Source: Candidatus Hermodarchaeota archaeon (GTDB lineage: Archaea > Asgardarchaeota > Lokiarchaeia > Sigyniarchaeales > SOKP01). Taken from it: 14,014 nucleotides of DNA. Numbering within the stretch: position 1 is the first letter of the stretch; the number at the start of each line of letters is the position of its first letter. Shown piece after piece: positions 680 to 14,014 of the stretch. The stretch is from positions 1-14,014 of the forward strand of contig JBHLLG010000071.1 in assembly GCA_048885925.1 (NCBI GenBank), read 5' to 3'. A program made the translations under genes and the position numbers. The notes under the pieces are model-generated. The model had not been told where the DNA came from and searched no databases. It was given only the letters and a program-made list of their open reading frames with translations.

Positions 680-2557
680 ATGAGCACTGAACAGAAAGAA
701 ACAGAACATCCTAATACGGGAGAAACAGATAATGAAGTAGTAAAAGAGGAACAAAGTCTTCAGTTTCATTTGTATATTATACTTTTCGCTATTATTTATT
801 ATATATCATGGGTTATACCAGGAATGGTATTTTGGTTATACTTTTTTTATCCTTTTCGAATTTACTTTTTAGAAAATCTTGGGTTTATATCAATTTTTAC
901 AGAACTAAGCTCATTGATAACACTTTTATTAATGCCACTTGTAATTATTTGTTGCTATTTACTACATTTAGTATTAATCGGATTGACGACGCGACTTTTA
1001 TGGAGAATCACGGAAAGAATCTCTCCATCAAGATCTGGCGTTATACCAAGGAATATAAGGAGTAGAGCTGCAAATTATTACCATATCAGGAGTTTTATGA
1101 TAAAGTATGGCAAGAATACTTTTGCTAAAGGAATTTTTCCTTGGTTATCTAATTGGTTTTTCAATACAGTTGGTTCAGACAAAATTGGTAAAAATACAAC
1201 GTTAGAAGAATCAGTGGGAAATGATAAATTTATAAATGTTGGTAAGAACTGCTATATTGGAGTAAATTCTACTCTAGCTAGTCATTTAATTCAAGGAATT
1301 TTTGGTAATATTTCCTACTTTGAAATTAAGCTTGGGGATAATGTTACAGCTGCTGGAATGAATCAAATTGGACCAGGAAGTGAGCTTCATGATAATTGCT
1401 TTTTGTTACCATTAGCTTCTACTAGTAAGCATAGTGTTGCGAAAGGTGCATATTATTTTGGAATTCCATTTCGAAAAATTTTTAGAAAAAAACTTATAAA
1501 TTATCTTGGAGTAACTGTAAAAAATTTAGAAATGAATGAGAATATCGAAGGTTATAAAGATAAAAAACTATTGAAGCGTATCAAAGAGAAGCAAAAACTA
1601 AATGAACAAAAAGCTGAAATTGTTGAAAATGGCATAATATTGGGTGATCTAGAAGAAAATGAAACTGATTTAAATAATTTAACAAAAGATGAATTAGCAA
1701 TTGATTTTAGTACTAGCTCAGCTATAAGTAGAGTTAATATAAAATTCCTAGCAGTATATTTACCTATTTTTTGGATTTCTGGTTTAATAATTACTATAAT
1801 ATGGTATTGGTACTCTGAAGATTTTATGAGTACTATGAAATTTAAATTAGGATTTTTTTTATTTTTCCCCTTAATGTTGTTTGGATTAATATATCTCTTT
1901 ATTTTAGCATGCATTCTCTTCAGTAAATTGCTATTAATATTAGTAAATTTAATCCATCGCCCAAAAGAGGGTGTTTTTAAAGCAGAAATAAGAGATACAG
2001 ATTTTGAGTTTTGGATGTTAAGAACCGAATTAAAGAAAATAGCCTTATGGTTCATGCGAAATTCTCCATTACCATGGACAGATGTAGTGTCTTTGAAACT
2101 ATTTGGAGTTAATATGGATTTCTCTAGTCATCTAAATGACGCATGGTGCGATGCTGAATTCATAAAATTTGGTAGAAAAAATTTAATTGGGCAAGGTGCA
2201 ACTATTAGTTCGAGTATGGTTATTGGAAAGTATTTATTAATTAAAAGTATAATTTTTGATGATTACGTAATGGTTGGAGGGCACGCATCAATATCTCCTG
2301 GAACAATAATGGGTAAGGAGACTGTGATTGGAGCCCTCAGTTCATCGACTTATAATCAGGTTTTAGAGCCAGGATGGGTTTATTTTGGATTCCCAGCAAT
2401 AAAACTGAAGGAAAACAAGTATGCTGAAGAAAAAAGAGATGTTATAATTAAACGGGATGTGGATAAAGCTAAAAAGTTTAAACAGATACATGAAGTCAAT
2501 ATTGATGAAGATAAAAAAAAATTAATTAAAACTGACAAAGAGATGAGAGAAACGTGA
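680..2557 (+). CDS. Membrane protein with two tandem TM-TM + left-handed beta-helix (hexapeptide-repeat acyltransferase-like) modules
   Basis: Two pairs of hydrophobic helices, each followed by hexapeptide repeats (IGKNTT/VGKNCYIGVNSTL/LGDNVT...YYFGIP and FGRKNLIGQGATI/VMVGGHASISPGTIMGKETVIGALS...YFGFPA), joined by a charged linker. Confidence 0.8.
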   Translation: MSTEQKETEHPNTGETDNEVVKEEQSLQFHLYIILFAIIYYISWVIPGMVFWLYFFYPFRIYFLENLGFISIFTELSSLITLLLMPLVIICCYLLHLVLIGLTTRLLWRITERISPSRSGVIPRNIRSRAANYYHIRSFMIKYGKNTFAKGIFPWLSNWFFNTVGSDKIGKNTTLEESVGNDKFINVGKNCYIGVNSTLASHLIQGIFGNISYFEIKLGDNVTAAGMNQIGPGSELHDNCFLLPLASTSKHSVAKGAYYFGIPFRKIFRKKLINYLGVTVKNLEMNENIEGYKDKKLLKRIKEKQKLNEQKAEIVENGIILGDLEENETDLNNLTKDELAIDFSTSSAISRVNIKFLAVYLPIFWISGLIITIIWYWYSEDFMSTMKFKLGFFLFFPLMLFGLIYLFILACILFSKLLLILVNLIHRPKEGVFKAEIRDTDFEFWMLRTELKKIALWFMRNSPLPWTDVVSLKLFGVNMDFSSHLNDAWCDAEFIKFGRKNLIGQGATISSSMVIGKYLLIKSIIFDDYVMVGGHASISPGTIMGKETVIGALSSSTYNQVLEPGWVYFGFPAIKLKENKYAEEKRDVIIKRDVDKAKKFKQIHEVNIDEDKKKLIKTDKEMRET

Positions 2558-3504
2558 GTGTACCAAATACAATGAGGGTGGGTCCTTTTACGCCCACAGT
2601 GTTGGTAAAAAAAAGATATTTAATTTTTTACATTCTGCTTATTTGGATAAGTATTATTCCTATACTTTTAGAGTTTTGGGTTTATTGGCGTTTCTTATGG
2701 AGTTATAGTCGACCAGTACATTTTTATACATTTCTTCCCCTTTTGGTATTTTTAATGTACGTAACACTTGTTTTTTCTGGTATTATTTTCGCTAAAATCT
2801 TATTAGTAATTGTTAATGCTATCAGAAAGCCCAGAGAAGGAATATTTTTACGAATTCCAGAAGATAAGGACTACCGGTACTGGAGCTTACGAAACACGAT
2901 AAAAAGATGGCCTATTTGGCTTGCTCACAGATTTCCATTTCCAGGGATTTTAGATAATATTTGCTTTAAAATGTTTGGGGTTAAAACCAAAATCTCGAAT
3001 TCATTATTTGAAGGCTGGGTAGACACAGAATTTATAGAATTCGGTAAGGATGTGGTAGTTGGACAAGGCGCAATTGTACAGTCGGCTGTAATTATAGGTA
3101 ATCTTTTAATAATACGAAAAACTGTTATTGAGGATGAAGTTAGAATAGGTTCACATGCCATTGTTATGCCTGGTACTCACATTGGGCAGCAAAGTATTCT
3201 CGCTGCTAATTCAGTTACAACAGTAGGCCAAGTTTTAGAAAGAGGGTATATATATGTAGGAATTCCTGCAAAAAAATTCAAGAGAAACTATTTTTTTGAA
3301 GATGGTTTAGAAGATAAAATAGGACATGTTGAAGATGTCGAGGCATTGCGAGAAAAATATGAAGAGATCTATACAAAACGATACGATCAGCTCACACTTA
3401 AAGAACGTCGTGAGTTAAGGAAAGAAAAGAAAGAAGAAGAGAAAAAAAGGTTTGATCTTGAGGCCGAAGAATGGGAAGAATTTGATGATGGTTTTAATAT
3501 CTAA
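2554..3504 (+). CDS. Membrane protein with a single TM-TM + left-handed beta-helix (acyltransferase-like) module
   Basis: GTG start overlaps the upstream TGA (GTGA at 2554-2557). Two TM helices, then FGKDVVVGQGAIV/IEDEVRIGSHAIVMPGTHIGQQSILAANS...YVGIPAK. Homologous to module 2 of the upstream gene (WVDTEFIEFG vs WCDAEFIKFG). Acidic, charged tail. Confidence 0.82.
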   Translation: MSVPNTMRVGPFTPTVLVKKRYLIFYILLIWISIIPILLEFWVYWRFLWSYSRPVHFYTFLPLLVFLMYVTLVFSGIIFAKILLVIVNAIRKPREGIFLRIPEDKDYRYWSLRNTIKRWPIWLAHRFPFPGILDNICFKMFGVKTKISNSLFEGWVDTEFIEFGKDVVVGQGAIVQSAVIIGNLLIIRKTVIEDEVRIGSHAIVMPGTHIGQQSILAANSVTTVGQVLERGYIYVGIPAKKFKRNYFFEDGLEDKIGHVEDVEALREKYEEIYTKRYDQLTLKERRELRKEKKEEEKKRFDLEAEEWEEFDDGFNI

Positions 3505-3596
3505 TGAGTTTAATATATTAAAATAGAGATTTTTTATAAAATTACTTTCTTTCAAGAATATAGTGTAATTAAAAAAAAAGAGATTTTTTTAATAAT

Positions 3597-4286
3597 TTAT
3601 TTGTTGATTTTTTGTTTTCTTATTAGTATAATAAAGACACTAGCGATAATGCCTATCAATAAGGGATAACTATAGCCAGGAATCTCTGTCTCTCCAGAAT
3701 TTCCTGTATCTTCTGGAGGATCAAAAGCATTAGTCTCAATAAATTCAAATGTTTGCCAATTTGTGTTATCTATCCTTGTACCATTTACAAGAAATCCTTT
3801 TGTCTTCTCAAACCAAAGTACACTTCCGTAATCATCTTCTAATACCCAAACTGCCATAGAGTCATAAGTTGATTCACCTGTAATATTATATATCGTATCA
3901 TCGTTCTTAAAAAAATCAAATAATGCAAATTGATCATCCAATGAAACATTTGCATATATCCAACAAAAATCATGGTAACCACTATCTGGTCCAAAGTCTT
4001 GCATATTTGATACAACTCTGGATGTAATATTTACATCCCAAGAACCTGTATCATGTACAGAGCCTCCTAATTCCCATTCTACATGAAAAATATCCTCTGA
4101 TGTTTTAGTCCATGTGAAAGTTGAAGGAAATTCTTCTGTGGTCATTGAAATACCATAAGTATGTTTAACATATATATTATTGAAAATTCCCACATCATTA
4201 GAATTAGCAATCGGGAGAAAGCCCGAAATTAATATTGAGATTGTAATTAATATCAATAAGGATTTCATTAGATTCGACTTTTTCAT
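3597..4286 (-). CDS. Secreted surface protein with C-terminal IPGY-TM-basic (Loki-CTERM-like) sorting signal; paralogue 1
   Basis: Signal peptide (MKKSNLMKSLLILITISILISGFLPIANS), beta-rich acidic body, low-complexity linker, then IPGYSYPLLIGIIASVFIILI-RKQKINK. Confidence 0.8.
   Translation of the reverse strand: MKKSNLMKSLLILITISILISGFLPIANSNDVGIFNNIYVKHTYGISMTTEEFPSTFTWTKTSEDIFHVEWELGGSVHDTGSWDVNITSRVVSNMQDFGPDSGYHDFCWIYANVSLDDQFALFDFFKNDDTIYNITGESTYDSMAVWVLEDDYGSVLWFEKTKGFLVNGTRIDNTNWQTFEFIETNAFDPPEDTGNSGETEIPGYSYPLLIGIIASVFIILIRKQKINK
3790..3860 (+). repeat. 71-bp near-identical segment, copy 1 (copy 2 at 4786..4856)
   Basis: 70/71 identity between the two paralogous genes; the single difference is G/A at 3828 vs 4824. 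Confidence 0.9.
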
Positions 4287-4344
4287 TTTTATTTATCATC
4301 CTTTATTAAAATTTTTATTAAGTAATATCTATTTCATAAATGTA

Positions 4345-4400
4345 TTTATAGATTTAACTTCGGAATATTCAAAAAATTTCAAAGTTCATTGATTTTTGAA
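4345..4400. promoter_or_regulatory. Conserved upstream element, copy A
   Basis: tttatagatttaacTTCGgaatattcaaaaaatTTCAAAgttcattgattTTTGAA. Aligns without gaps to copies B and C; ends about 59 nt upstream of the 4286 ATG. Confidence 0.7.
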
Positions 4401-4595
4401 TTTAATAATAAAAAATAAACCAGTCCAAAATTGAAATTTAGGTATATTATTCCTAGAAGATTGATTGAATTTCTCCAGACATATAATAACTCCAACTTTT
4501 TTAATTTTTAAAAAAAAATAGTCAAAATTTTTAAAAGAAAAGAAGATAAAATTCTGATTATATTCCTAAAAGGAGAATAAAAAATAAAAATTGAT

Positions 4596-5282
4596 TTAAA
4601 TTTTATTTTTTGATTTTTGGTTTTTTATTAGAATAATAGAGACACTAGCGATAATACTTATCAATAAGAGATAACTATATCCAGGGATTGCTGCACCATC
4701 AGTATCCTCTGGAGGTTCAAAAGCATTTGTTGATACAAATTCATATGAATTCCAATCTGTAAGATGATTAATTGTCCCATTCACTAGAAATCCTTTTGTC
4801 TTCTCAAACCAAAGTACACTTCCATAATCATCTTCTAATACCCAAACTGCCATAGAACCATGCATCGCTTCACCAGTAACATTAAATAAAACATCACCGT
4901 CAAAACCATGGACGCATCTCCAGATGTTACACATTGGAAATTGATCATTAATGGAGATATCCGTGTAAATCCAAAAGACCGAATGATTGCCATTAAAAGG
5001 ACCGAAATTCACCACATTTGATATAATTCTCGTGGTAATATTTACATCCCACGAACCATCATCATTAATAGGATCTTTCAATTCATTTTCAATACGAAAC
5101 GTATCCTCAGATATCTTTAAAAACGTTAGTGTCATAGGTATTTCCGTCCCTGGCATTGGAGAAAGAGTATAAGTATGATTTACATACATACCATCGAATA
5201 TTCCAATTTCATTAGAATAAGCAACCGAAAGAAAGCACGAAAGTAATATCGAGGAAGTAATTAATCCCAGTAATGATTTCAT
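4596..5282 (-). CDS. Secreted surface protein with C-terminal IPGY-TM-basic (Loki-CTERM-like) sorting signal; paralogue 2 (true start possibly ATT at 5300)
   Basis: Full-length similarity to 3597..4286 (GSWDVNIT; SMAVWVLEDDYGSVLWFEKTKGFLVNGT identical; IPGYSY). N-terminal signal peptide. Confidence 0.8.
   Translation of the reverse strand: MKSLLGLITSSILLSCFLSVAYSNEIGIFDGMYVNHTYTLSPMPGTEIPMTLTFLKISEDTFRIENELKDPINDDGSWDVNITTRIISNVVNFGPFNGNHSVFWIYTDISINDQFPMCNIWRCVHGFDGDVLFNVTGEAMHGSMAVWVLEDDYGSVLWFEKTKGFLVNGTINHLTDWNSYEFVSTNAFEPPEDTDGAAIPGYSYLLLISIIASVSIILIKNQKSKNKI
4786..4856 (+). repeat. 71-bp near-identical segment, copy 2 (copy 1 at 3790..3860)
   Basis: agaaatccttttgtcttctcaaaccaaagtacacttccRtaatcatcttctaatacccaaactgccataga. 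Confidence 0.9.
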
Positions 5283-5357
5283 TAATGTCGATTTTTTAAT
5301 TTTAATAAAACCTCATTATTTTAAATACTGTTAATAAATATTTAAATCACCAATTTA

Positions 5358-5413
5358 TTTTTAGATTGAGCTTCGGAAGAGTTTAGAAAGTTCGAAGTCT
5401 ATTGAATTTCGAA
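5358..5413. promoter_or_regulatory. Conserved upstream element, copy B
   Basis: tttttagattgagcTTCGgaagagtttagaaagTTCGAAgtctattgaatTTCGAA. Contains a perfect CTTCG-N17-CGAAG; 44/56 identical to copy C by hand count. Confidence 0.75.
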
Positions 5414-5673
5414 TTTTACCGATAGTTGTAAGATGATTTGAAATTTAAACATGGAATCTTTATCATTAAAACGGACAATTTACGAAAATTGTTGAAAATT
5501 TTCTATATTTGAGAAGAAAAATTATTAGAAGTTCCTTTATACAACAATTGCTGTCTAATACTTACTTCTCACAATTATTTAAGAATTAGTTTGGCAATTT
5601 TGCGCAAATAAATAATTTGCGAAGATCATTAATACTAACTAATCGAGTATTAATAAATTTTAAAAAAAAATAA

Positions 5674-5717
5674 ATAGAATAGGAGGAATAGTTGTTTACT
5701 AATCCTCTATTTTCTAT
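5674..5717. terminator. Imperfect inverted repeat downstream of the beta-helix gene; possible terminator or stabilising hairpin
   Basis: atagaatagGAGGAaTAGT-tgttt-ACTAaTCCTCtattttctat, with 9/10 pairs in the core stem. It lies about 40 nt past the 5756 stop and is followed on the - strand by a T9 run (the A run near 5662-5670). Confidence 0.4.
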
Positions 5718-5755
5718 CATTTATTTTAGATATATGGAAATGAAAGTTTAGCTCG

Positions 5756-7081
5756 TTAAAATTTAGGGAAAGATTGAACAAATTCTCTCTTCCGCTCCAT
5801 CGCTTCTTGGATTTCTGGACCTGGGGGATTACCTTGCATATTATTCATTCCAACTATGAGATTGTTGTCACCACCAAAATTTAACACATTCGTCTTTGTA
5901 GACCCTCCAACAACTATACAATTGAAGGAGTAAGCCAATACAATAGGAGCTGCCTGAGCATCAACATTTTGAACATTATTACCAAGCAGTAAGTTATTAT
6001 AAGCAGAAGCACAAAAAATACCATAAGATCCTGTACCGCGAATGATATTGTTAGAAAAAAATGCATCTTGCAGACCCTGTGTCCAAATTGCGCCCCAGTT
6101 TGCATCATCTAAAATAATTTTATTATTTAAGACAACTGCTTCGAGTGATTTGGGCGAAAAATCCATTAAAGATATACCATCGGAGTCAAGAGATAATACT
6201 TTTATAGTGTTATGAGTTATAAGCCATTGGGAGGGAGATTCCCTGGGAGGAGGCTGCATTACCCAAATACCACCAAAAAAAGTTGTTTCAATATAATTTC
6301 GAGAAATCTCCAATTTTGAATTGTCAACTTCAGCATTAATTATTCCAATAGCACCTTCTTTAATCGAATTTGACTTAATTGTAAATTCACAATTCATTAA
6401 TCCGTATGCTGTAATTCCTAACCATAGGGAGCTAAAATCACATTTAGTAACAATATGTCTTCCTGTTGTTGGTAAACCACCTCCATATTCAACTCCTACT
6501 CTAACATTAAAGCTTTTTACCGAAAAAAGAGGATGCCAAGGATCATAAAGTATTGTTCCTTCATGACCAGTAAATTTAACATCTTCAATTCGGGAATTTA
6601 TGTCTCCTGCTATTAGGATAGGCGCTAACAAATCGTCCCACCCTGGTCCCCATGGTTCAGCGGGCGAATAAGGCGTAATTTCAAAGCATAAATCCGAAAT
6701 ATAGGTATCTCCACCTATAAACGTAAATAAATGAGGTCCATAAGGACTAGATACTCCCGGTGCTCCAGAATCTAATCCTCTGAGGACATCAATTTTAGTA
6801 AGACCCATACCCGCCCCCATAAATGTACCATAGAAATTTTCAGCAATAATTGCATTTGTATAAAATTGACCTGGAGTTAATAGAACAATGCTTCCTGGAC
6901 CTGCAGCAATGGCATCATCAAATGCGGCTTGGATGTTTGCAGTATCGTCTCCCCCTGATGGAGTCACCGTAAAAGTAGGTGAATCAGCACGAACTATTCC
7001 GATTACTAAAGTAAAAGTTCCAAATATCATTACTAATGTAAAAATTCCGGTTAATAGACTTGATTTTGTTTTCGTTTTCAT
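5756..7081 (-). CDS. Secreted right-handed parallel beta-helix (pectin-lyase-fold) protein
   Basis: Signal peptide; TPSGGDDTANIQAAFDDA...IVLLTPGQFY cap typical of Pectate_lyase_3/beta-helix proteins; repeated I.S/N.N.I and G.GI rungs; SD-like GGAGTGA 6 nt before the ATG. Confidence 0.8.
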   Translation of the reverse strand: MKTKTKSSLLTGIFTLVMIFGTFTLVIGIVRADSPTFTVTPSGGDDTANIQAAFDDAIAAGPGSIVLLTPGQFYTNAIIAENFYGTFMGAGMGLTKIDVLRGLDSGAPGVSSPYGPHLFTFIGGDTYISDLCFEITPYSPAEPWGPGWDDLLAPILIAGDINSRIEDVKFTGHEGTILYDPWHPLFSVKSFNVRVGVEYGGGLPTTGRHIVTKCDFSSLWLGITAYGLMNCEFTIKSNSIKEGAIGIINAEVDNSKLEISRNYIETTFFGGIWVMQPPPRESPSQWLITHNTIKVLSLDSDGISLMDFSPKSLEAVVLNNKIILDDANWGAIWTQGLQDAFFSNNIIRGTGSYGIFCASAYNNLLLGNNVQNVDAQAAPIVLAYSFNCIVVGGSTKTNVLNFGGDNNLIVGMNNMQGNPPGPEIQEAMERKREFVQSFPKF

Positions 7082-7205
7082 ATTTATTCACTCCATTTTT
7101 CTAATTTTTGTTTTATTTCACTTTTTATCGAAAAAAATGATTAAATTTTATTTTTCGACCTCTTTTTATTAAATTTTGGTTATTGATATCTTTCCTATAA
7201 TTTTA

Positions 7206-7261
7206 TTTTTAGATTTGGCTTCGGAATATTGTATGAAGGTCGAAGTTTAACGAATTTCGAT
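7206..7261. promoter_or_regulatory. Conserved upstream element, copy C (in the divergent region between the beta-helix gene and the wHTH gene)
   Basis: tttttagatttggcTTCGgaatattgtatgaagGTCGAAgtttaacgaatTTCGAt, containing CTTCG-N17-CGAAG. Confidence 0.75.
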
Positions 7262-7416
7262 TTGAAATATAAAATAGATTTGAAATAAGCTTTTTTTTTA
7301 AAAAAAGAATATAAGTACATCTAGCATATTTTTAAATGAATATTTTAAGATAAGTTAATAACATGAGTAAAGTAATATGATAAATTAAAATAAGAGATCC
7401 ATGGTGTTTTCATAAG

Positions 7417-8760
7417 ATTTGTGCTAAAAAACTAAATTATCCTGCTCAAGAAATAATTACTCCCACAGGGATTGAGAAAAAAGATTTTGAATATATTATT
7501 TTATGGATGCTTAACAATAATGAAGAATGTAATTGGTCTGACTTTTTAGATAAACCTTTAGAATTTAGTCTTGCCACATTATCAAAATATATGAATCTAT
7601 TAATGACAAATGGGTTTGTTGAAAAGAAAGAGAAGGGTCTATACTCGATTACATCTGAAGGAAAAAAAAGATATTTTGATTTAAGGTTTAAAGATTCATT
7701 TGATAGAAAGTTACGATATCCTCCCGAAATAATATTAAATAAGAGAAATTACGTCCACATTATTCTTTGGATGCTACATAATAATGAATATTGTAAATGG
7801 AAAGACTTTCTTGAGAAACCTCTTTCAATCAATAACAATTCTCTTTCAAAAAATATGAATCTTTTATTAAAAAAGAAATTTGTGAAAACCGAAAATATGG
7901 AATATCGAATTACGAAAGCTGGTGAATCTCAATATGCTAAAATGTTAGAAAAATACGAATTAGATTATCAATCAGTTTTACAAGAAGAAATTAAAAGAAT
8001 CGAAGAAATCAAAGCAAAAATGAATAAATTCCTCGAAAAATATAGAATTGACGATGACGAGATTAAAATTGTATTTTTGGATTTAAATAACTATTTAGAC
8101 TATTCTAAGATTGAAAAATTATTAGCATTTGAGGAAGATTATTACAAAATTTTATTATTTTTTTCTATGAATCATCCGATTAAATATCCAGAATATACAT
8201 CACCTGAAACCTATTCTCTTAAATTTGAAATTGATATTACTACACTTAATTTTTTTATTCAAAAAATTGTGAAGGATAATTTATTTGACTTAAAGTTCTT
8301 CAATTTAAGATTTAAAGATTATGAAACTTATTATTTTCGAGTAGGCGAAAAATTTGAAGACATGATGCACTTAATTATAGATGAAAACATTGTCAAATTT
8401 AGTTATCTGAAAAAATTACAGCCAGATCTTCCAAATGAAGATAAAACTTTGCAAACAATAGATTTATTTGAAAATATTGTAGATGATATCTGTAATAAAA
8501 TGTTCGATGACAAAATTAAGCCAGATATAATCCTATTTTTACAAGAATATATTAAATATTTGAACTTAAAATTCCAGAGAGGGGATGTTTCTGATGATGT
8601 AGTCCATACCTTCAAAGGCATGGCTTATCAAAACTTAACTAATTTAGATTTAAATGATTTTAAAAAAGTAACTGAGAATAAAAAAATAATCTCAATTATG
8701 GTGAAGAATTTTCCAAAATATACGATTTTAGATGAAATCAAAAAAAAATGGAAAGAATAA
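7417..8760 (+). CDS. Tandem winged helix-turn-helix DNA-binding protein, putative transcriptional regulator (start uncertain; the track start at 7507 is internal)
   Basis: Two wHTH repeats: IILWMLNNNEECNWSDFLDKPLEFSLATLSKYMNLLMTNGFVEK..GLYSITSEGK and IILWMLHNNEYCKWKDFLEKPLSINNNSLSKNMNLLLKKKFVKT...YRITKAGE. The frame stays open upstream of 7507 (KKLNYPAQEII matches RKLRYPPEII) back to the TAA at 7381-7383. Confidence 0.75.
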   Translation: MCAKKLNYPAQEIITPTGIEKKDFEYIILWMLNNNEECNWSDFLDKPLEFSLATLSKYMNLLMTNGFVEKKEKGLYSITSEGKKRYFDLRFKDSFDRKLRYPPEIILNKRNYVHIILWMLHNNEYCKWKDFLEKPLSINNNSLSKNMNLLLKKKFVKTENMEYRITKAGESQYAKMLEKYELDYQSVLQEEIKRIEEIKAKMNKFLEKYRIDDDEIKIVFLDLNNYLDYSKIEKLLAFEEDYYKILLFFSMNHPIKYPEYTSPETYSLKFEIDITTLNFFIQKIVKDNLFDLKFFNLRFKDYETYYFRVGEKFEDMMHLIIDENIVKFSYLKKLQPDLPNEDKTLQTIDLFENIVDDICNKMFDDKIKPDIILFLQEYIKYLNLKFQRGDVSDDVVHTFKGMAYQNLTNLDLNDFKKVTENKKIISIMVKNFPKYTILDEIKKKWKE

Positions 8761-8773
8761 ATTTAAGAATCTA

Positions 8774-8812
8774 TTCGAACTTTGTAAAAAGTTACGAACC
8801 TAAATCTAAAAA
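8774..8812. promoter_or_regulatory. Conserved upstream element, copy D (inverted; upstream of the ubiquitin-like gene)
   Basis: Reverse complement is tttttagatttaggTTCGtaactttttacaaagTTCGAA, with the same spacing as A-C but no third box. Confidence 0.68.
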
Positions 8813-8904
8813 TGCTAATTAAATAGATATATTATAATTAACTCTTTAAATAGTATAATAATTAGTTATTAGGTAAGAATTAGGAAAAAAAAATAAAAAG
8901 TCAT

Positions 8905-9186
8905 ATGATACTCTCTGTAGAAGATACTAGAGCAGGAAAGATAATTAAATTAGATGTTAATGAAAAGCATTTAGTTGAGAGTATCATAAGTATTGTTGTT
9001 AAACATATGAATATAATTAGTTCAGAACAACGTTCTTTTGCTTTAATATATAAAGGAAAAGAATTACCTAATTCGATAACCATCGGAGATGTAGTCAAAG
9101 ATTATGGTTTGAAAGAAAATGATAAACTGGAACTATGGGCTAAGGTAATCGGAGGCTACAGTAACAATTTATTCATGTATTTTTAA
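8905..9186 (+). CDS. Ubiquitin-like (beta-grasp) protein precursor with di-glycine and a 9-aa C-terminal extension
   Basis: QRSFALIYKGKELPNSITIGDVVKDYGLKENDKLELWAKVIGG parallels ubiquitin [36 protein letters not shown]. GG is at residues 83-84 (9151-9156), followed by YSNNLFMYF. Confidence 0.85.
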   Translation: MILSVEDTRAGKIIKLDVNEKHLVESIISIVVKHMNIISSEQRSFALIYKGKELPNSITIGDVVKDYGLKENDKLELWAKVIGGYSNNLFMYF

Positions 9187-10207
9187 GATCATCTTTTAAA
9201 GTATCAAAATAAGATAATGTAGTTAAAATAATCCGTGCTTCTTTCTTTAATCCTCCTTTCTTGTATAATTCAGCAGCTCTTCTAATCATTGTTGTAATTT
9301 TTTGGTAATTTTCTATATTAATTTTGAATTGTTTCTCTTTTTCATAGTCTAAGATTAGTTTTAACGCATTACAAAAATCTGAATTTCCTAGTGCTAGGAA
9401 TTTCAATTTTGCACCAGCAATACTTTCGCTAGCCTGTTTAAAGTGATTCGCTGCTTCTATAAAATTTTTTGCTTCGCCTTTTTCTTCAGCATAAGCCAAA
9501 TATTCCCAAGCTTTACATAAATGATATAATGTATCAACTTCTTCTTTTTCTTGCTTAAGAACAGTTTCTAAATAAAGATTCTTAAATTGAGATGCTACAC
9601 TTGCGAATATTTTAGCCGCTTTGGAACATTCTCCTCTTGTTACCAAAATTTTTGCTTCCTCGATTTCTAAAAATAGAGTATCATATTTAGAAGGTAATCG
9701 TTTTTCTTTTTCGATAATTGATTTCCTTAAAATTTCATTTATAATGGAGATCATTTCATCTTTAGAATCCTTCTGAACCGCTGAAAATCCAAATGTTTTT
9801 TCTCCAAAAATTTCTTCAATTTTTTCTATTTCTATGACTTTTCCTTTTCTATCTTGAAAATTAGCTATAATATAATAGTCTACATTTTGAATTTCTTGTT
9901 TTAATTTTAATAATAAATTTTGAGACTTTTCTACATTGGTTAAAGTTGAATTAGTAACAACACAAATTATATTAATAGATTGTAAGAGTTTTTTATAGGA
10001 TTTCAAATTATTAATTAGTTCCTTTAATTCAATGACTTTTAAAATGAATTGCTCAATTTCTTTAAGTTCAATTATATCAATTGTTTTTTTTAAAATTTCA
10101 TTTAAATCTAAGTCTATTTCTAATATATTTTCACCAGGGAATAGATTTAAAATTGTTAATTTTCCTACTCCTTCTTCTCCTGTTAACAAAATTTCAACCG
10201 TAACTAT
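9173..10207 (-). CDS. Degenerate Arf/Ras-like small GTPase domain fused to a C-terminal TPR/SNAP-like helical domain (start uncertain: ATA 10207 vs TTG 10189)
   Basis: VEILLTGEEGVGKLT (G1-like), YYIIANFQD (G4-like), FGFSAV (G5-like). The C-terminal helices carry AAKIF, AANHFKQA and AAELYKK patterns. Confidence 0.7.
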   Translation of the reverse strand: MVTVEILLTGEEGVGKLTILNLFPGENILEIDLDLNEILKKTIDIIELKEIEQFILKVIELKELINNLKSYKKLLQSINIICVVTNSTLTNVEKSQNLLLKLKQEIQNVDYYIIANFQDRKGKVIEIEKIEEIFGEKTFGFSAVQKDSKDEMISIINEILRKSIIEKEKRLPSKYDTLFLEIEEAKILVTRGECSKAAKIFASVASQFKNLYLETVLKQEKEEVDTLYHLCKAWEYLAYAEEKGEAKNFIEAANHFKQASESIAGAKLKFLALGNSDFCNALKLILDYEKEKQFKINIENYQKITTMIRRAAELYKKGGLKKEARIILTTLSYFDTLKDDLKNT

Positions 10208-10454
10208 TTTTGTCCCTCCTTCATAATATTGAGAGATTTAATTGTCAAAATCCATTTATTCAAAACTATTTTTAATACTATTGATTACCTTTAATGAAGT
10301 TATAACTAGCTCTTTTGATAATAATAGCTTTTCCTTCTTATATTTATAATTAATTTTAATATAGGCTTTAATGGTAATTAAAGTGACTGCCTTGGTTAAA
10401 TAGGGGATTAATTTACTATATTTTCTTTTTTCAGTAGGAAATTTACCTTAATTA

Positions 10455-10643
10455 TTATTCTCTTGATCGTAGATAAATATATAATCCAAACAAAAAAGGA
10501 ATTAACCAAATGATTAAAACCCATAAAAAGACATTCATATTTCTTTTTTTAGCATCTTGATATACCCATATTGATATTAATAACGAAGTGAGAAAAGTTG
10601 TTACTAAGAAAATAATTAAAATCAAAATTATAAATTCTATCAT
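10455..10643 (-). CDS. Small two-TM membrane protein (WVYxDAxxR type, PLDc_N-like)
   Basis: TM - WVYQDAKKRNMN - WVLIIWLIPFLFGLYIYL-RSRE pattern. Confidence 0.7.
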   Translation of the reverse strand: MIEFIILILIIFLVTTFLTSLLISIWVYQDAKKRNMNVFLWVLIIWLIPFLFGLYIYLRSRE

Positions 10644-10694
10644 TAGCTTTATATTTCCTATATATTTCTTATTTAATTTTACTCAATTTCATTA

Positions 10695-11684
10695 TTAGTT
10701 TTGCCTTTCATATGTTTTAGGATTAAACTTTGTAAAAGGTGTTTCACATCCCCAACAATTATTTTCTAACTCAGTTAAGGCTTCGCAACATTTTATGCAA
10801 TACCAAGCTTCACATTTGGGACATACATAAGTTAACCCTGAAATTTTGTTTTTACACACCAAACAAAATCCTTTTTCTTTGCTATATTTGACGTCTTCAA
10901 CACTGAATTTTAACGGTTTGGTAAAAATCCTTAAAGTTTCTTGCAATTCTTCTTTTTTAGTAGCAGATTCAGCTCTCCTTGTATAAAAATAAATTATATA
11001 CCCTAAAATTAAAATTAGTGTAAAAATTGCCATCCAGATCATAATTAAAAATAAATGTACTAATTGAAGATTAAAGAATAATATTAAACCCACAAATATC
11101 GCAAGTATACTTATCATTATCAATACAAATAACTTGATAATTGCTTTAGAAAAAAACTCAAAATAACCTATTAATGGAGAAGTAGCAATAAGCACTCCTA
11201 TAATAATAAACATTGAACCTAAAATAGGGGAAAATAGGTTTGAATTTTTTATTATTATTGCCTCAAAACTCCAACCAATCAAAAAAGTGGCAAATCCAAG
11301 GGTTATTATTGAAGAGATTGCTTGAAACTCACGCTTTGATTTAAATGTGGACCAAATAAACAAGATTATTATAATTATTGTGTTAATAAAAGTATAAGTA
11401 TATAGATATAAGTAGAAATATAGAAAGAGATAACTTATAACGTTATAAGTCTGGATTATAACATTTAAATCTCCAATATAAGTTCCTTCTAGAAAATAAT
11501 CGAGAACAAATAAGAATAGTCGTGTTAAAGCAATGTTAAGCCAAAATACTCCAAATCCGATCATTAAGATTTTTTCATTTTTATCATTTTTTCTGAATCC
11601 TCTAGAAAGATAAGAAATACCGCAGACGAATATTATAAAAATAGCCATACTTGACAAAAAGCGCTCTAAAGGTTCGGGAATCAT
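10695..11684 (-). CDS. ~7-TM membrane protein with C-terminal C4C4 RING-like zinc finger
   Basis: Seven hydrophobic segments followed by C-x2-C-x10-C-x2-C-x4-C-x2-C-x10-C-x2-C (10746..10865). Confidence 0.78.
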   Translation of the reverse strand: MIPEPLERFLSSMAIFIIFVCGISYLSRGFRKNDKNEKILMIGFGVFWLNIALTRLFLFVLDYFLEGTYIGDLNVIIQTYNVISYLFLYFYLYLYTYTFINTIIIIILFIWSTFKSKREFQAISSIITLGFATFLIGWSFEAIIIKNSNLFSPILGSMFIIIGVLIATSPLIGYFEFFSKAIIKLFVLIMISILAIFVGLILFFNLQLVHLFLIMIWMAIFTLILILGYIIYFYTRRAESATKKEELQETLRIFTKPLKFSVEDVKYSKEKGFCLVCKNKISGLTYVCPKCEAWYCIKCCEALTELENNCWGCETPFTKFNPKTYERQN

Positions 11685-12869: not shown

Positions 12870-14014
12870 TTACTTGTCTAGATAAGCAAATTTTAGGATT
12901 AATCTTAAAGGGGCACCATCAATTGGAATCCCTTTTACATCTGAATCCCAGATATCATAGCTTATAGGAAACGCCAACCATAAAGCTGGATAAAGCTCTT
13001 CAATAAGACGCTGCTGAATATTAAAATATAATTGTTCTCTTGCAGTTTCATTGAATTCTTCAAGAGCATGGTCAATCCATAGTTGTACTTCTGTATCATT
13101 AAAATTAATAAAATTAGCAACACCATCTAATTTACTTGAGTATAATGGGTTGATAATATCAATAGGATCTACACTAGCAATACCCCATCCCAAAGTAAAC
13201 ATATCTAATTCTTTATCATACAATTTATATTCCATTTCTAAAGAACCCATTGTGTTAAGATTTACTTTCACACCAATCTGTTTAAGATATCCAATTGTTA
13301 GATTAGCTATGAATTCCATCCATGGCCAACAAGTTGAAAAATTATATTCACCAAGAGGTGTGATACTATTTGCTAAGGTTTCCCATTCATTTCCAGCGGA
13401 AATATTATTATTTGCTGTTAACCCGGTTGTACCAGACCAATTCGCATTTATCAAGATTTGCCTTGCTCTTGTAATATTATAATCTGGTACCTCAAAATTC
13501 CAGTTAGAATAACGCAACTTTCTTGGAAGAGGAGATCTTGCTCTTTCTGCGTGTATCCCCCAATTTCCTTCTATACAGTGAGTATAATTAAATGCATATG
13601 AGATTGCCTTTCTCATTGTAAGATTTATTTTATTATTATTCATACCAATATAAAAGAAAATTAATCTCGTTTTTGGCACTACTGTAATTCCGGGAGTATT
13701 TCTAAATATATCGAGTGTTTCATCATTACGAGATCCCATAGCATATGAAAGCTCCCCAGATAACATTCTCTCTTTTATTTCTATTTCACTTAAAGCTAGG
13801 AAGGTAACTTTATTAATTTTAGGAGCTCCACCCCAATAATCTGGATTAGCATGTATTTCTGTTTTCAAACTCTCGCCCTTATAATTTAACTCACAGGAAT
13901 CAAAAATAAAGGGACCAGTTCCGACTAGCTTTCCAGTCCCAATATCGATGAAATCATCTTCAGGAGTAGAGGTCGGGGAAAGTATGTAAGAGTTCCAGAG
14001 GGCAAGTAAATCTT
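12870..14014 (-). CDS. ABC transporter substrate-binding protein, family 5 (DppA/OppA-like); 5'-partial
   Basis: The frame is open beyond the track start at 13868 to the window edge (...ILSPTSTP...LVGTGPFIFD...). It contains NPDYWGGAPKI, MRKAISYAFN, LKQIGVKV and REQLYFNIQQRLIEELYP, all SBP_bac_5 hallmarks. Confidence 0.92.
   Translation of the reverse strand, partial: DLLALWNSYILSPTSTPEDDFIDIGTGKLVGTGPFIFDSCELNYKGESLKTEIHANPDYWGGAPKINKVTFLALSEIEIKERMLSGELSYAMGSRNDETLDIFRNTPGITVVPKTRLIFFYIGMNNNKINLTMRKAISYAFNYTHCIEGNWGIHAERARSPLPRKLRYSNWNFEVPDYNITRARQILINANWSGTTGLTANNNISAGNEWETLANSITPLGEYNFSTCWPWMEFIANLTIGYLKQIGVKVNLNTMGSLEMEYKLYDKELDMFTLGWGIASVDPIDIINPLYSSKLDGVANFINFNDTEVQLWIDHALEEFNETAREQLYFNIQQRLIEELYPALWLAFPISYDIWDSDVKGIPIDGAPLRLILKFAYLDK

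Follow-up and report, generated by a model that had tools for sequence, protein, structure and literature searches.

Archaeal transcription activators such as Ptr2 of Methanocaldococcus and TFB-RF1 of Pyrococcus bind an upstream activating sequence (UAS) directly upstream of the TFB recognition element (BRE) and TATA box. At the level of the listed record, Sta1 of Sulfolobus is a further archaeal activator with a UAS in this position (PMC1635249). The window analysed here, the whole of contig JBHLLG010000071.1 (14,014 nt, 28.6% G+C) of Candidatus Hermodarchaeota archaeon, carries four copies of a ~44-nt element before three genes for surface proteins and one gene for a ubiquitin-like (Ubl) protein, arranged around a gene (7417..8760) for a protein with tandem winged helix-turn-helix (wHTH) domains. 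The element is real, specific, conserved and promoter-associated, and we consider it probable from its sequence and setting that it combines the operator or UAS of the neighbouring regulator with a BRE/TATA box.

Like Ptr2, TFB-RF1 and Sta1, the putative regulator is a wHTH-type protein, with a predicted site that abuts the probable BRE/TATA box of a weak promoter and a local target set. It differs from them in carrying two wHTH domains, a third winged-helix (wH)-like unit and a helical domain in one chain of 447 amino acids (aa), in having half-sites 22 bp apart and in family matches that are all below cutoff, and activation is here a prediction. With regulators of the MarR/PadR type, which have ~150 aa and a single wHTH, form homodimers and mostly repress from a site over the promoter, it shares the winged-helix fold at domain level, a dyad operator and a position divergent from a target; however, it is three times longer, has tandem domains, and its predicted site lies upstream of the TATA-like box. 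One-component regulators that combine a helix-turn-helix domain with tetratricopeptide repeats (TPR) also exist, for example the bacterial RRNPP type. Paralogs of the window protein (630-1050 aa) resemble these at the level of architecture, with an N-terminal DNA-binding and a C-terminal TPR part, and the conserved neighbourhood holds an SBP_bac_5 solute-binding gene, but the window regulator itself has no TPR part.

Asgard ubiquitin clusters comprise E1, E2, RING, JAB and ubiquitin (Ub) genes, as far as the listed records go (PMC9192718, PMC5654768). The window Ubl protein has a GG end and the ubiquitin fold and is 61% identical to the Ub of such a cluster, which lies on another contig (C41) of the same genome. 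In contrast to the cluster genes, it is a second paralog outside the cluster with its own predicted regulated promoter, and it adjoins multi-transmembrane zinc-finger and P-loop proteins, with no E1 or E2 in the window. The listings and abstracts returned by literature searches contained nothing describing the element or the protein family, and no Asgard transcription factor with a mapped site turned up in them. A wHTH regulator with a dyad site and a local regulon is a known kind of system; the protein family, the site and the target set are new.

A promoter-associated element confined to one locus

Read towards the gene, the element has the form ACTTCGAACTTT-N9-TTCCGAAG-N3-AATCTAAAAAT, and the four window copies align without gaps (A to D; Table 1). 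Direct reading of the sequence confirmed their places as given in a preliminary description of this DNA, and with them the core dyad it had noted: CTTCG-N17-CGAAG in B and C, TTCG-N17-CGAA in D and a single mismatch in A, where the distal half-site is TTTG. A genome-wide pattern search found CTTCG-N17-CGAAG in copies B and C only. All four copies are oriented towards their gene, and their distances to the called starts (59, 76, 125 and 93 nt for A to D) had been reported correctly; copy D begins 12 nt past the regulator stop codon. Genes were called with a simple longest-open-reading-frame script and no gene finder, and start codons and gene distances are approximate. An independent repeat search recovered A to C as a direct three-member family (106 nt, 69-72% identity) and, over 40 nt, the inverted pairs B/D (83%) and C/D (78%). 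The similarity of A to C is present as described and continues ~48 nt closer to the genes than had been marked. A third box, TTYGAW, is likewise present in A to C but is not general, the loose pattern matching 9 of 35 copies across genomes.

A matrix from the four window copies scores them at 51-62 bits, versus 17.7 bits for the next site. This test is circular, and the matrix was therefore rebuilt from 31 copies of other genomes with no window sequence included. The foreign-copy matrix finds exactly the four window copies in the 3.9-Mb genome (41.2-56.9 bits); among 7.8 million positions the runner-up reaches 16.4 bits, and three Markov-1 random genomes gave maxima of 7.3-13.8 bits. Chance origin of the four copies is excluded. 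The preliminary description had named a random spread or a match to a mobile-element end as outcomes that would speak against it, and the scan returned four copies, all in the locus. Two weaker sites were rejected as element copies and resemble the paralog-type boxes treated below: the promoter at C178:1281-1324 (16.4 bits) combines a TTCGAACTTCG box with a AAAACTATATAAT box, and C29:20604-20647 (9.6 bits) adjoins a paralog.

A survey of 30 genomes of the genus with a degenerate pattern (up to 2 mismatches) gave 36 sites in 10 genomes, and a reversed control pattern had no match in any of the 30. The protein search covered 23 other genus genomes and then five more, with the motif-negative genome G045 left out. 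Orthologs of the 7417..8760 protein (63-73% identity, ~447 aa) were found in 8/23 and 1/5 of these, and the remaining 19 genomes hold only longer paralogs at 40-48% identity and no element. The 10 genomes with the element are this genome and exactly the nine that bear an ortholog (29 tested for both), so that the expected co-occurrence of motif and tandem-wHTH protein was observed, with paralogs alone going without the element. No match is more than a few kb away from an ortholog or ortholog fragment, and the nine other genomes have 2-5 copies per ortholog locus. At all nine complete ortholog genes (9/9), one copy lies divergently upstream and another starts 5-56 nt past the stop codon, facing the next gene.

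The alignment of the 31 foreign copies has most of its information in TTCG, CTTT, TTCCGAAG and AAATCTAAAAAT and close to none in the 30 nt upstream. Across genomes in which orthologous proteins share 45-90% identity, the element retains 40-62 bits, and species differ in the order of the genes around the regulator. Copy D and some foreign copies (the second ortholog locus of G014, G002, G010 and G006) have a different spacer with an inner palindrome of the AACTTT-N4-AAAGTT type, which resembles the operator of the ~635-aa paralog group; the element may thus have two sub-types, distinguished by the spacer palindrome.

For 35 copies (11 loci, 10 genomes), a target was defined as an open reading frame with 60 aa or more, found within 260 nt and running in the orientation of the copy. 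By this definition, 34/35 copies lie 34-146 nt upstream of a same-orientation reading frame, and one copy is without a call; the uniform orientation and the position before gene starts that had been described for the window thus hold across genomes. The targets are Ubl genes (11), the family of genes A and B (12), beta-helix genes (6) and others (5). The five others have no window homolog and encode signal-peptide-like N-termini; two of them are additional proteins with beta-helix repeats, whose C-terminal tail is hydrophobic and basic. The earlier remark that gene duplication could explain A and B, and that C and D precede unrelated genes, was borne out: A and B are tandem duplicates, and the targets belong to non-homologous families.

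Table 1. Features of the window. Scores of the element copies are from the foreign-copy matrix.
Feature	Position	Strand	Score (bits)	Description
Copy A	4342..4385	-	41.2	upstream of gene 3597..4286
Copy A, parts		-		dyad 4358-4384; TATA-like AAATCTATAAAT 4344-4355
Copy B	5355..5398	-	49.6	upstream of gene 4596..5282
Copy B, parts		-		exact dyad CTTCG-N17-CGAAG 5371-5397; TATA-like 5357-5368
Copy C	7203..7246	-	56.9	upstream of beta-helix gene, divergent from regulator gene
Copy C, parts		-		exact dyad 7219-7245; TATA-like 7205-7216
Copy D	8772..8815	+	47.5	upstream of ubiquitin-like gene
Copy D, parts		+		dyad TTCG-N17-CGAA 8774-8798; TATA-like 8802-8813
Candidate regulator	7417..8760	+		447 aa; two wHTH domains, third wH-like unit, helical C-terminal part, no TPR
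Target gene A	3597..4286	-		229-aa secreted protein; signal peptide, C-terminal PGY, transmembrane segment and basic tail
Target gene B	4596..5282	-		228-aa paralog of A, tandem duplicate; same signal peptide, PGY, transmembrane segment and basic tail
Beta-helix target	5756..7081	-	Pfam Beta_helix 43.4, NosD 27.5	441-aa right-handed beta-helix protein, N-terminal signal/anchor
Ubiquitin-like target	8905..9186	+		93 aa, ...VIGG and 9-residue tail
Ubl neighbours	9173-11684	-		conserved 338-aa protein, 62-aa membrane peptide, 329-aa multi-transmembrane protein
Flanks	680-3504 and 12870-14012			two hexapeptide-repeat (LbH) transferase-like proteins; SBP_bac_5 solute-binding protein truncated at contig end

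Anatomy of the element and proposed mechanism

The dyad is imperfect: its left half, ACTTCGAACTTT, matches the reverse-complemented right half, GCTTCGGAATAT, at 8/12 positions, and its core pairs are complementary in 30-35 of the 35 copies. The half-sites (CTTCGRA) are centred ~22 bp apart; this spacing corresponds to two helical turns, which would place both on the same face of the DNA. The 3' 12 nt, AAATCTAAAAAT, are the best conserved block of the element among the 31 foreign copies. In promoters of the A/B type, the element is followed at ~45 nt by an AGAGGT Shine-Dalgarno (SD) sequence and, in 9/12, at 54-59 nt by the start codon. Transcription should therefore start within ~40 nt, and a TATA box ~26 nt upstream of such a start would coincide with AATCTAAAAAT. 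Promoters of paralog loci show AA(A/T)CTATAWAT in the corresponding place. TTATAA-type boxes also stand ahead of tRNA genes, a reading that rests on few cases because aragorn found only 12 of these genes. The 3' part of the element is thus most likely the BRE/TATA box itself. The preliminary description had placed the site just upstream of the promoter; conservation and the SD and start spacing suggest instead that its 3' third probably belongs to the promoter. A form of the element in which the TATA-like block is improved towards TATA is written CTATATAT.

A mechanism is proposed in which each copy would be a composite regulated promoter, with a regulator site fused to a weak TATA box. The 5' 28 nt (ACTTCGAACTTT-N9-TTCCGAAG), an imperfect inverted repeat, are the predicted recognition site of the 7417..8760 tandem winged-helix protein, and the 3' 12 nt would act as BRE/TATA, with transcription starting ~25 nt downstream and the regulator placed directly against the TFB/TBP site. 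The regulator would co-control 3-5 outward-facing promoters around its own gene, and hence secreted Loki-CTERM-type proteins, beta-helix surface proteins and an island-specific ubiquitin paralog. Both the binding of the element by the 7417..8760 protein and the TATA assignment of the 3' block are what we infer from sequence and layout. Activation by recruitment of TBP/TFB to a sub-optimal TATA box is slightly favoured over repression by BRE occlusion, because the site would lie immediately upstream of a BRE and a non-consensus TATA box, as in the archaeal activators.

The putative regulator, its family and its targets

The regulator matches Pfam HTH_45 in two stretches (34.9 bits, cutoff 25.5) and HTH_34 (31.5 bits, cutoff 27). 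An AlphaFold2 (AF2) model from a 14-sequence alignment, with a predicted local distance difference test (pLDDT) score of 83, shows H-H-H-beta-beta units at residues 24-78 and 112-165 and a third wH-like unit at residues 263-308. The Foldseek resemblances, all at domain level, are to PadR, MarR, NadR and PhiH1 repressor-like structures (prob 0.8-1.0). In NCBIfam, the Sta1 family (28.5 bits, cutoff 80) and, for wHTH-1, Sso10a were matched below cutoff.

The probable start codon of the gene is a non-canonical ATT that follows GGTG (7403-7406) by 10 nt. Eleven orthologs (window positions 7384-7420 and loci L019-L026 and L033) have ATT (8/11) or ATC (3/11) here, always 10 nt after a conserved GGTG. 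In ten of the 11, no ATG, GTG or TTG occurs from the closest in-frame stop upstream to this codon, and in three the stop lies just 1-3 codons upstream. The next canonical start codon falls 5-30 codons into the conserved first wHTH domain. Many database entries for the protein have 417-419 aa, which is consistent with annotation from an internal ATG that would truncate the first wHTH. Most orthologs conserve a TTTTTAAATGAA-like block, at 7327-7340 in the window, ~85 nt upstream of the ATT, which may be the regulator's own TATA box; ~70 nt separate it from copy C at its distal end.

In this genome the regulator family numbers 7 proteins, and searches of the genus gave 2-10 matches in each genome; the paralogs carry additional C-terminal TPR repeats. 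The divergent intergenic regions of paralogs contain subgroup-specific conserved boxes with GAAST/CGAA cores, located between the regulator side and the target TATA box. Grouped by eye, these boxes read TTCGAACTTC-N4-GAAGTT in the ~635-aa group, ACTTCA-NN-TGAAGT...CGAAGT in the ~1000-aa group and repeated GAACT in the ~845-aa group. In the window's own genome (G000), the pattern ACTTC-N13-27-GAAGT, which was derived from paralog loci of that genome, has 5 intergenic matches, 4 of them beside paralogs. Subgroups that each stand beside their own GAAST/CGAA-type boxes would be expected if the proteins of this family read such boxes.

The label of surface proteins given earlier holds: the products of A and B both have signal peptides, judged by eye from the translations, and match NCBIfam Loki-CTERM (NF033507) at 18.5 (A) and 17.2 bits (B), just under the cutoff of 19.9. 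Contigs from DNA runs show joints within 3505-5657 that skip or repeat ~1 kb (3505>4579, 4598>5657, 4692>3699), consistent with strain variation in the copy number of the tandem A/B genes.

The name ubiquitin-like is likewise retained, because the fold and the GG end fit while Pfam ubiquitin (PF00240) scores 21.9 bits on the 93-aa protein, below its cutoff of 25.4. G83 and G84 are invariant in 10/10 sequences, as is VIGG, and 5/10 end exactly at GG. The AF2 model (pLDDT 83.6) is a beta-grasp fold in the order beta-beta-alpha-beta-beta-alpha-beta, and the top Foldseek matches in the PDB are ubiquitin chains (E 1.9e-7, prob 1.00, 23-35% identity, target-normalised template-modelling value ~0.8). 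Contig C41 (17376-23389) encodes a small GTPase, a 791-aa protein, an MPN/JAB-like protein, a ThiF-like E1, an E2-like protein and an 86-aa Ub ending in VIGGNL. With domain names read by eye from translations, this looks like a canonical Asgard-type ubiquitin cluster, which makes the window gene a second ubiquitin paralog. The foreign-copy matrix finds no element at the canonical Ub on C41. Ubl homologs with 57-61% identity occur in 4/5 searched genomes that lack a regulator ortholog, and in 3/4 of these the gene ahead ends in NPNPxDPL, which we take to be an E2-like motif. No element was found near the homologs in these four genomes (best matrix score -9.4 to -16.8 bits); the element therefore tracks the regulator rather than the gene family.

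Next to the Ubl gene, the 338-aa protein starts with a P-loop-like GEEGVGK, and the 329-aa multi-transmembrane protein has a C-terminal Cys-rich zinc finger (C-x2-C...C-x2-C...C-x2-CC...C-x2-C) with a Pfam C1_2 score of 17.3 bits only. The zinc-finger tail resembles that of a reading frame beside the canonical Ub on C41. In a contig of one relative (L021), the block Ubl-338-62-329-331-SBP is repeated up to three times. The host genome (181 contigs, 29% G+C) is estimated to be 95% complete, and the database relatives of the window proteins carry source labels of Promethearchaeota or other Asgard metagenome-assembled genomes.

Alternative explanations and significance

Several observations weigh against reading the element as the neighbouring protein's site fused to a TATA box. 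TATA-like words show a broad, weak rise 20-80 nt before reading-frame starts genome-wide, and this diffuse profile leaves the TATA assignment without independent calibration. The proximal half-site ends 3 nt before AAATCT, so a bound regulator could equally block TFB and thus repress. One RNA library contained related sequence, as three contigs that all lie inside the beta-helix gene and are blind to starts and strand. A Foldseek search with the whole regulator model gave no match at E <= 0.001, all E values being above 0.01. A family-wide ACTTC-N13-27-GAAGT rule was dropped, since it held in 8/39 paralog upstream regions of other genomes versus 3/39 for the reversed control (one region of 40 was too short to use), and the paralog argument is therefore qualitative, based on boxes seen by eye. 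Finally, the co-occurrence of element and ortholog is confounded by co-inheritance of one island, and could simply reflect an island inherited together with its promoters.

The same ambiguity underlies the alternative that survives best, in which the regulated promoter is read by a factor encoded elsewhere (another wHTH protein or a specialised TFB/TBP paralog) and the neighbouring regulator is co-inherited or cargo. The co-occurrence fits a protein that travels with the element as well as one that binds it, and a special basal factor could explain why AAATCTAAAAAT is so strongly conserved. We nevertheless regard this as unlikely: none of the 29 genomes searched for element and ortholog alike has one without the other, copies flank the regulator gene on both sides at 9/9 loci, paralogs of the same family adjoin related boxes of their own, and four copies per genome are few for a basal-factor variant.

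Less likely again is that no dedicated factor exists and that homologous strong core promoters were spread by local duplication or rearrangement of cassettes, remaining alike through youth or gene conversion. The tandem A/B genes with their changes in copy number between strains, the 106 nt common to A to C and the shuffled gene order would all suit such a history. It would not explain why the same element stands before non-homologous genes, why it is kept at 40-62 bits beside flanks without information while the orthologous proteins diverge to 45-90% identity, or why conservation is column-specific with a dyad symmetry (8/12) that a basal promoter alone does not need.

That the element acts as RNA, in a 5' leader hairpin or a small RNA, is very improbable. 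CTTCG...CGAAG could pair in a 5-bp stem, but the loop would be 17 nt, the window has no Rfam match at E <= 1, and the dyad is probably not transcribed, as the TATA-like box lies downstream of it. The sole variable dyad pair, C-G in 19 copies and A-G, G-G or A-C in 11, changes on one side alone, so there is no covariation of the RNA type and no compensatory change among the dyad pairs of the 35 copies. Equally improbable are recombination sites or mobile-element ends around invertible or exchangeable cassettes: C and D do form inverted repeats flanking the regulator gene, and gene order does differ between species, but there are only four copies, on one contig and within 4.5 kb, unlike a miniature inverted-repeat transposable element or mobile-element terminal repeat, the arms are merely 78-83% complementary, the window reading frames scanned contain no recombinase or transposase domain, and no inverted form is among the joints listed for contigs of four runs.

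If the 7417..8760 protein does read the element, the locus supplies a protein of 447 aa paired with a dyad of 28 nt, of which the 35 copies provide natural variants. It also offers a first concrete picture of an Asgard regulated promoter, in which a putative transcription factor site abuts the BRE/TATA box and is followed by an SD-containing leader. The predicted co-regulation of a second ubiquitin paralog with secreted surface proteins would make the use of ubiquitin in Asgard archaea more approachable. More speculatively, and rather doubtful as a whole, the tandem-wHTH proteins may be one-component regulators expanded throughout the genus (3-10 per genome), with each subgroup reading its own TATA-adjacent GAAST/CGAA variant, and the short TPR-less member may switch on the dedicated ubiquitin paralog, beside the RING-like zinc-finger multi-transmembrane and P-loop proteins, together with the secreted Loki-CTERM and beta-helix proteins of an accessory island. 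If this were true, ubiquitin-like modification in this Asgard lineage would be wired to cell-surface remodelling or sorting.

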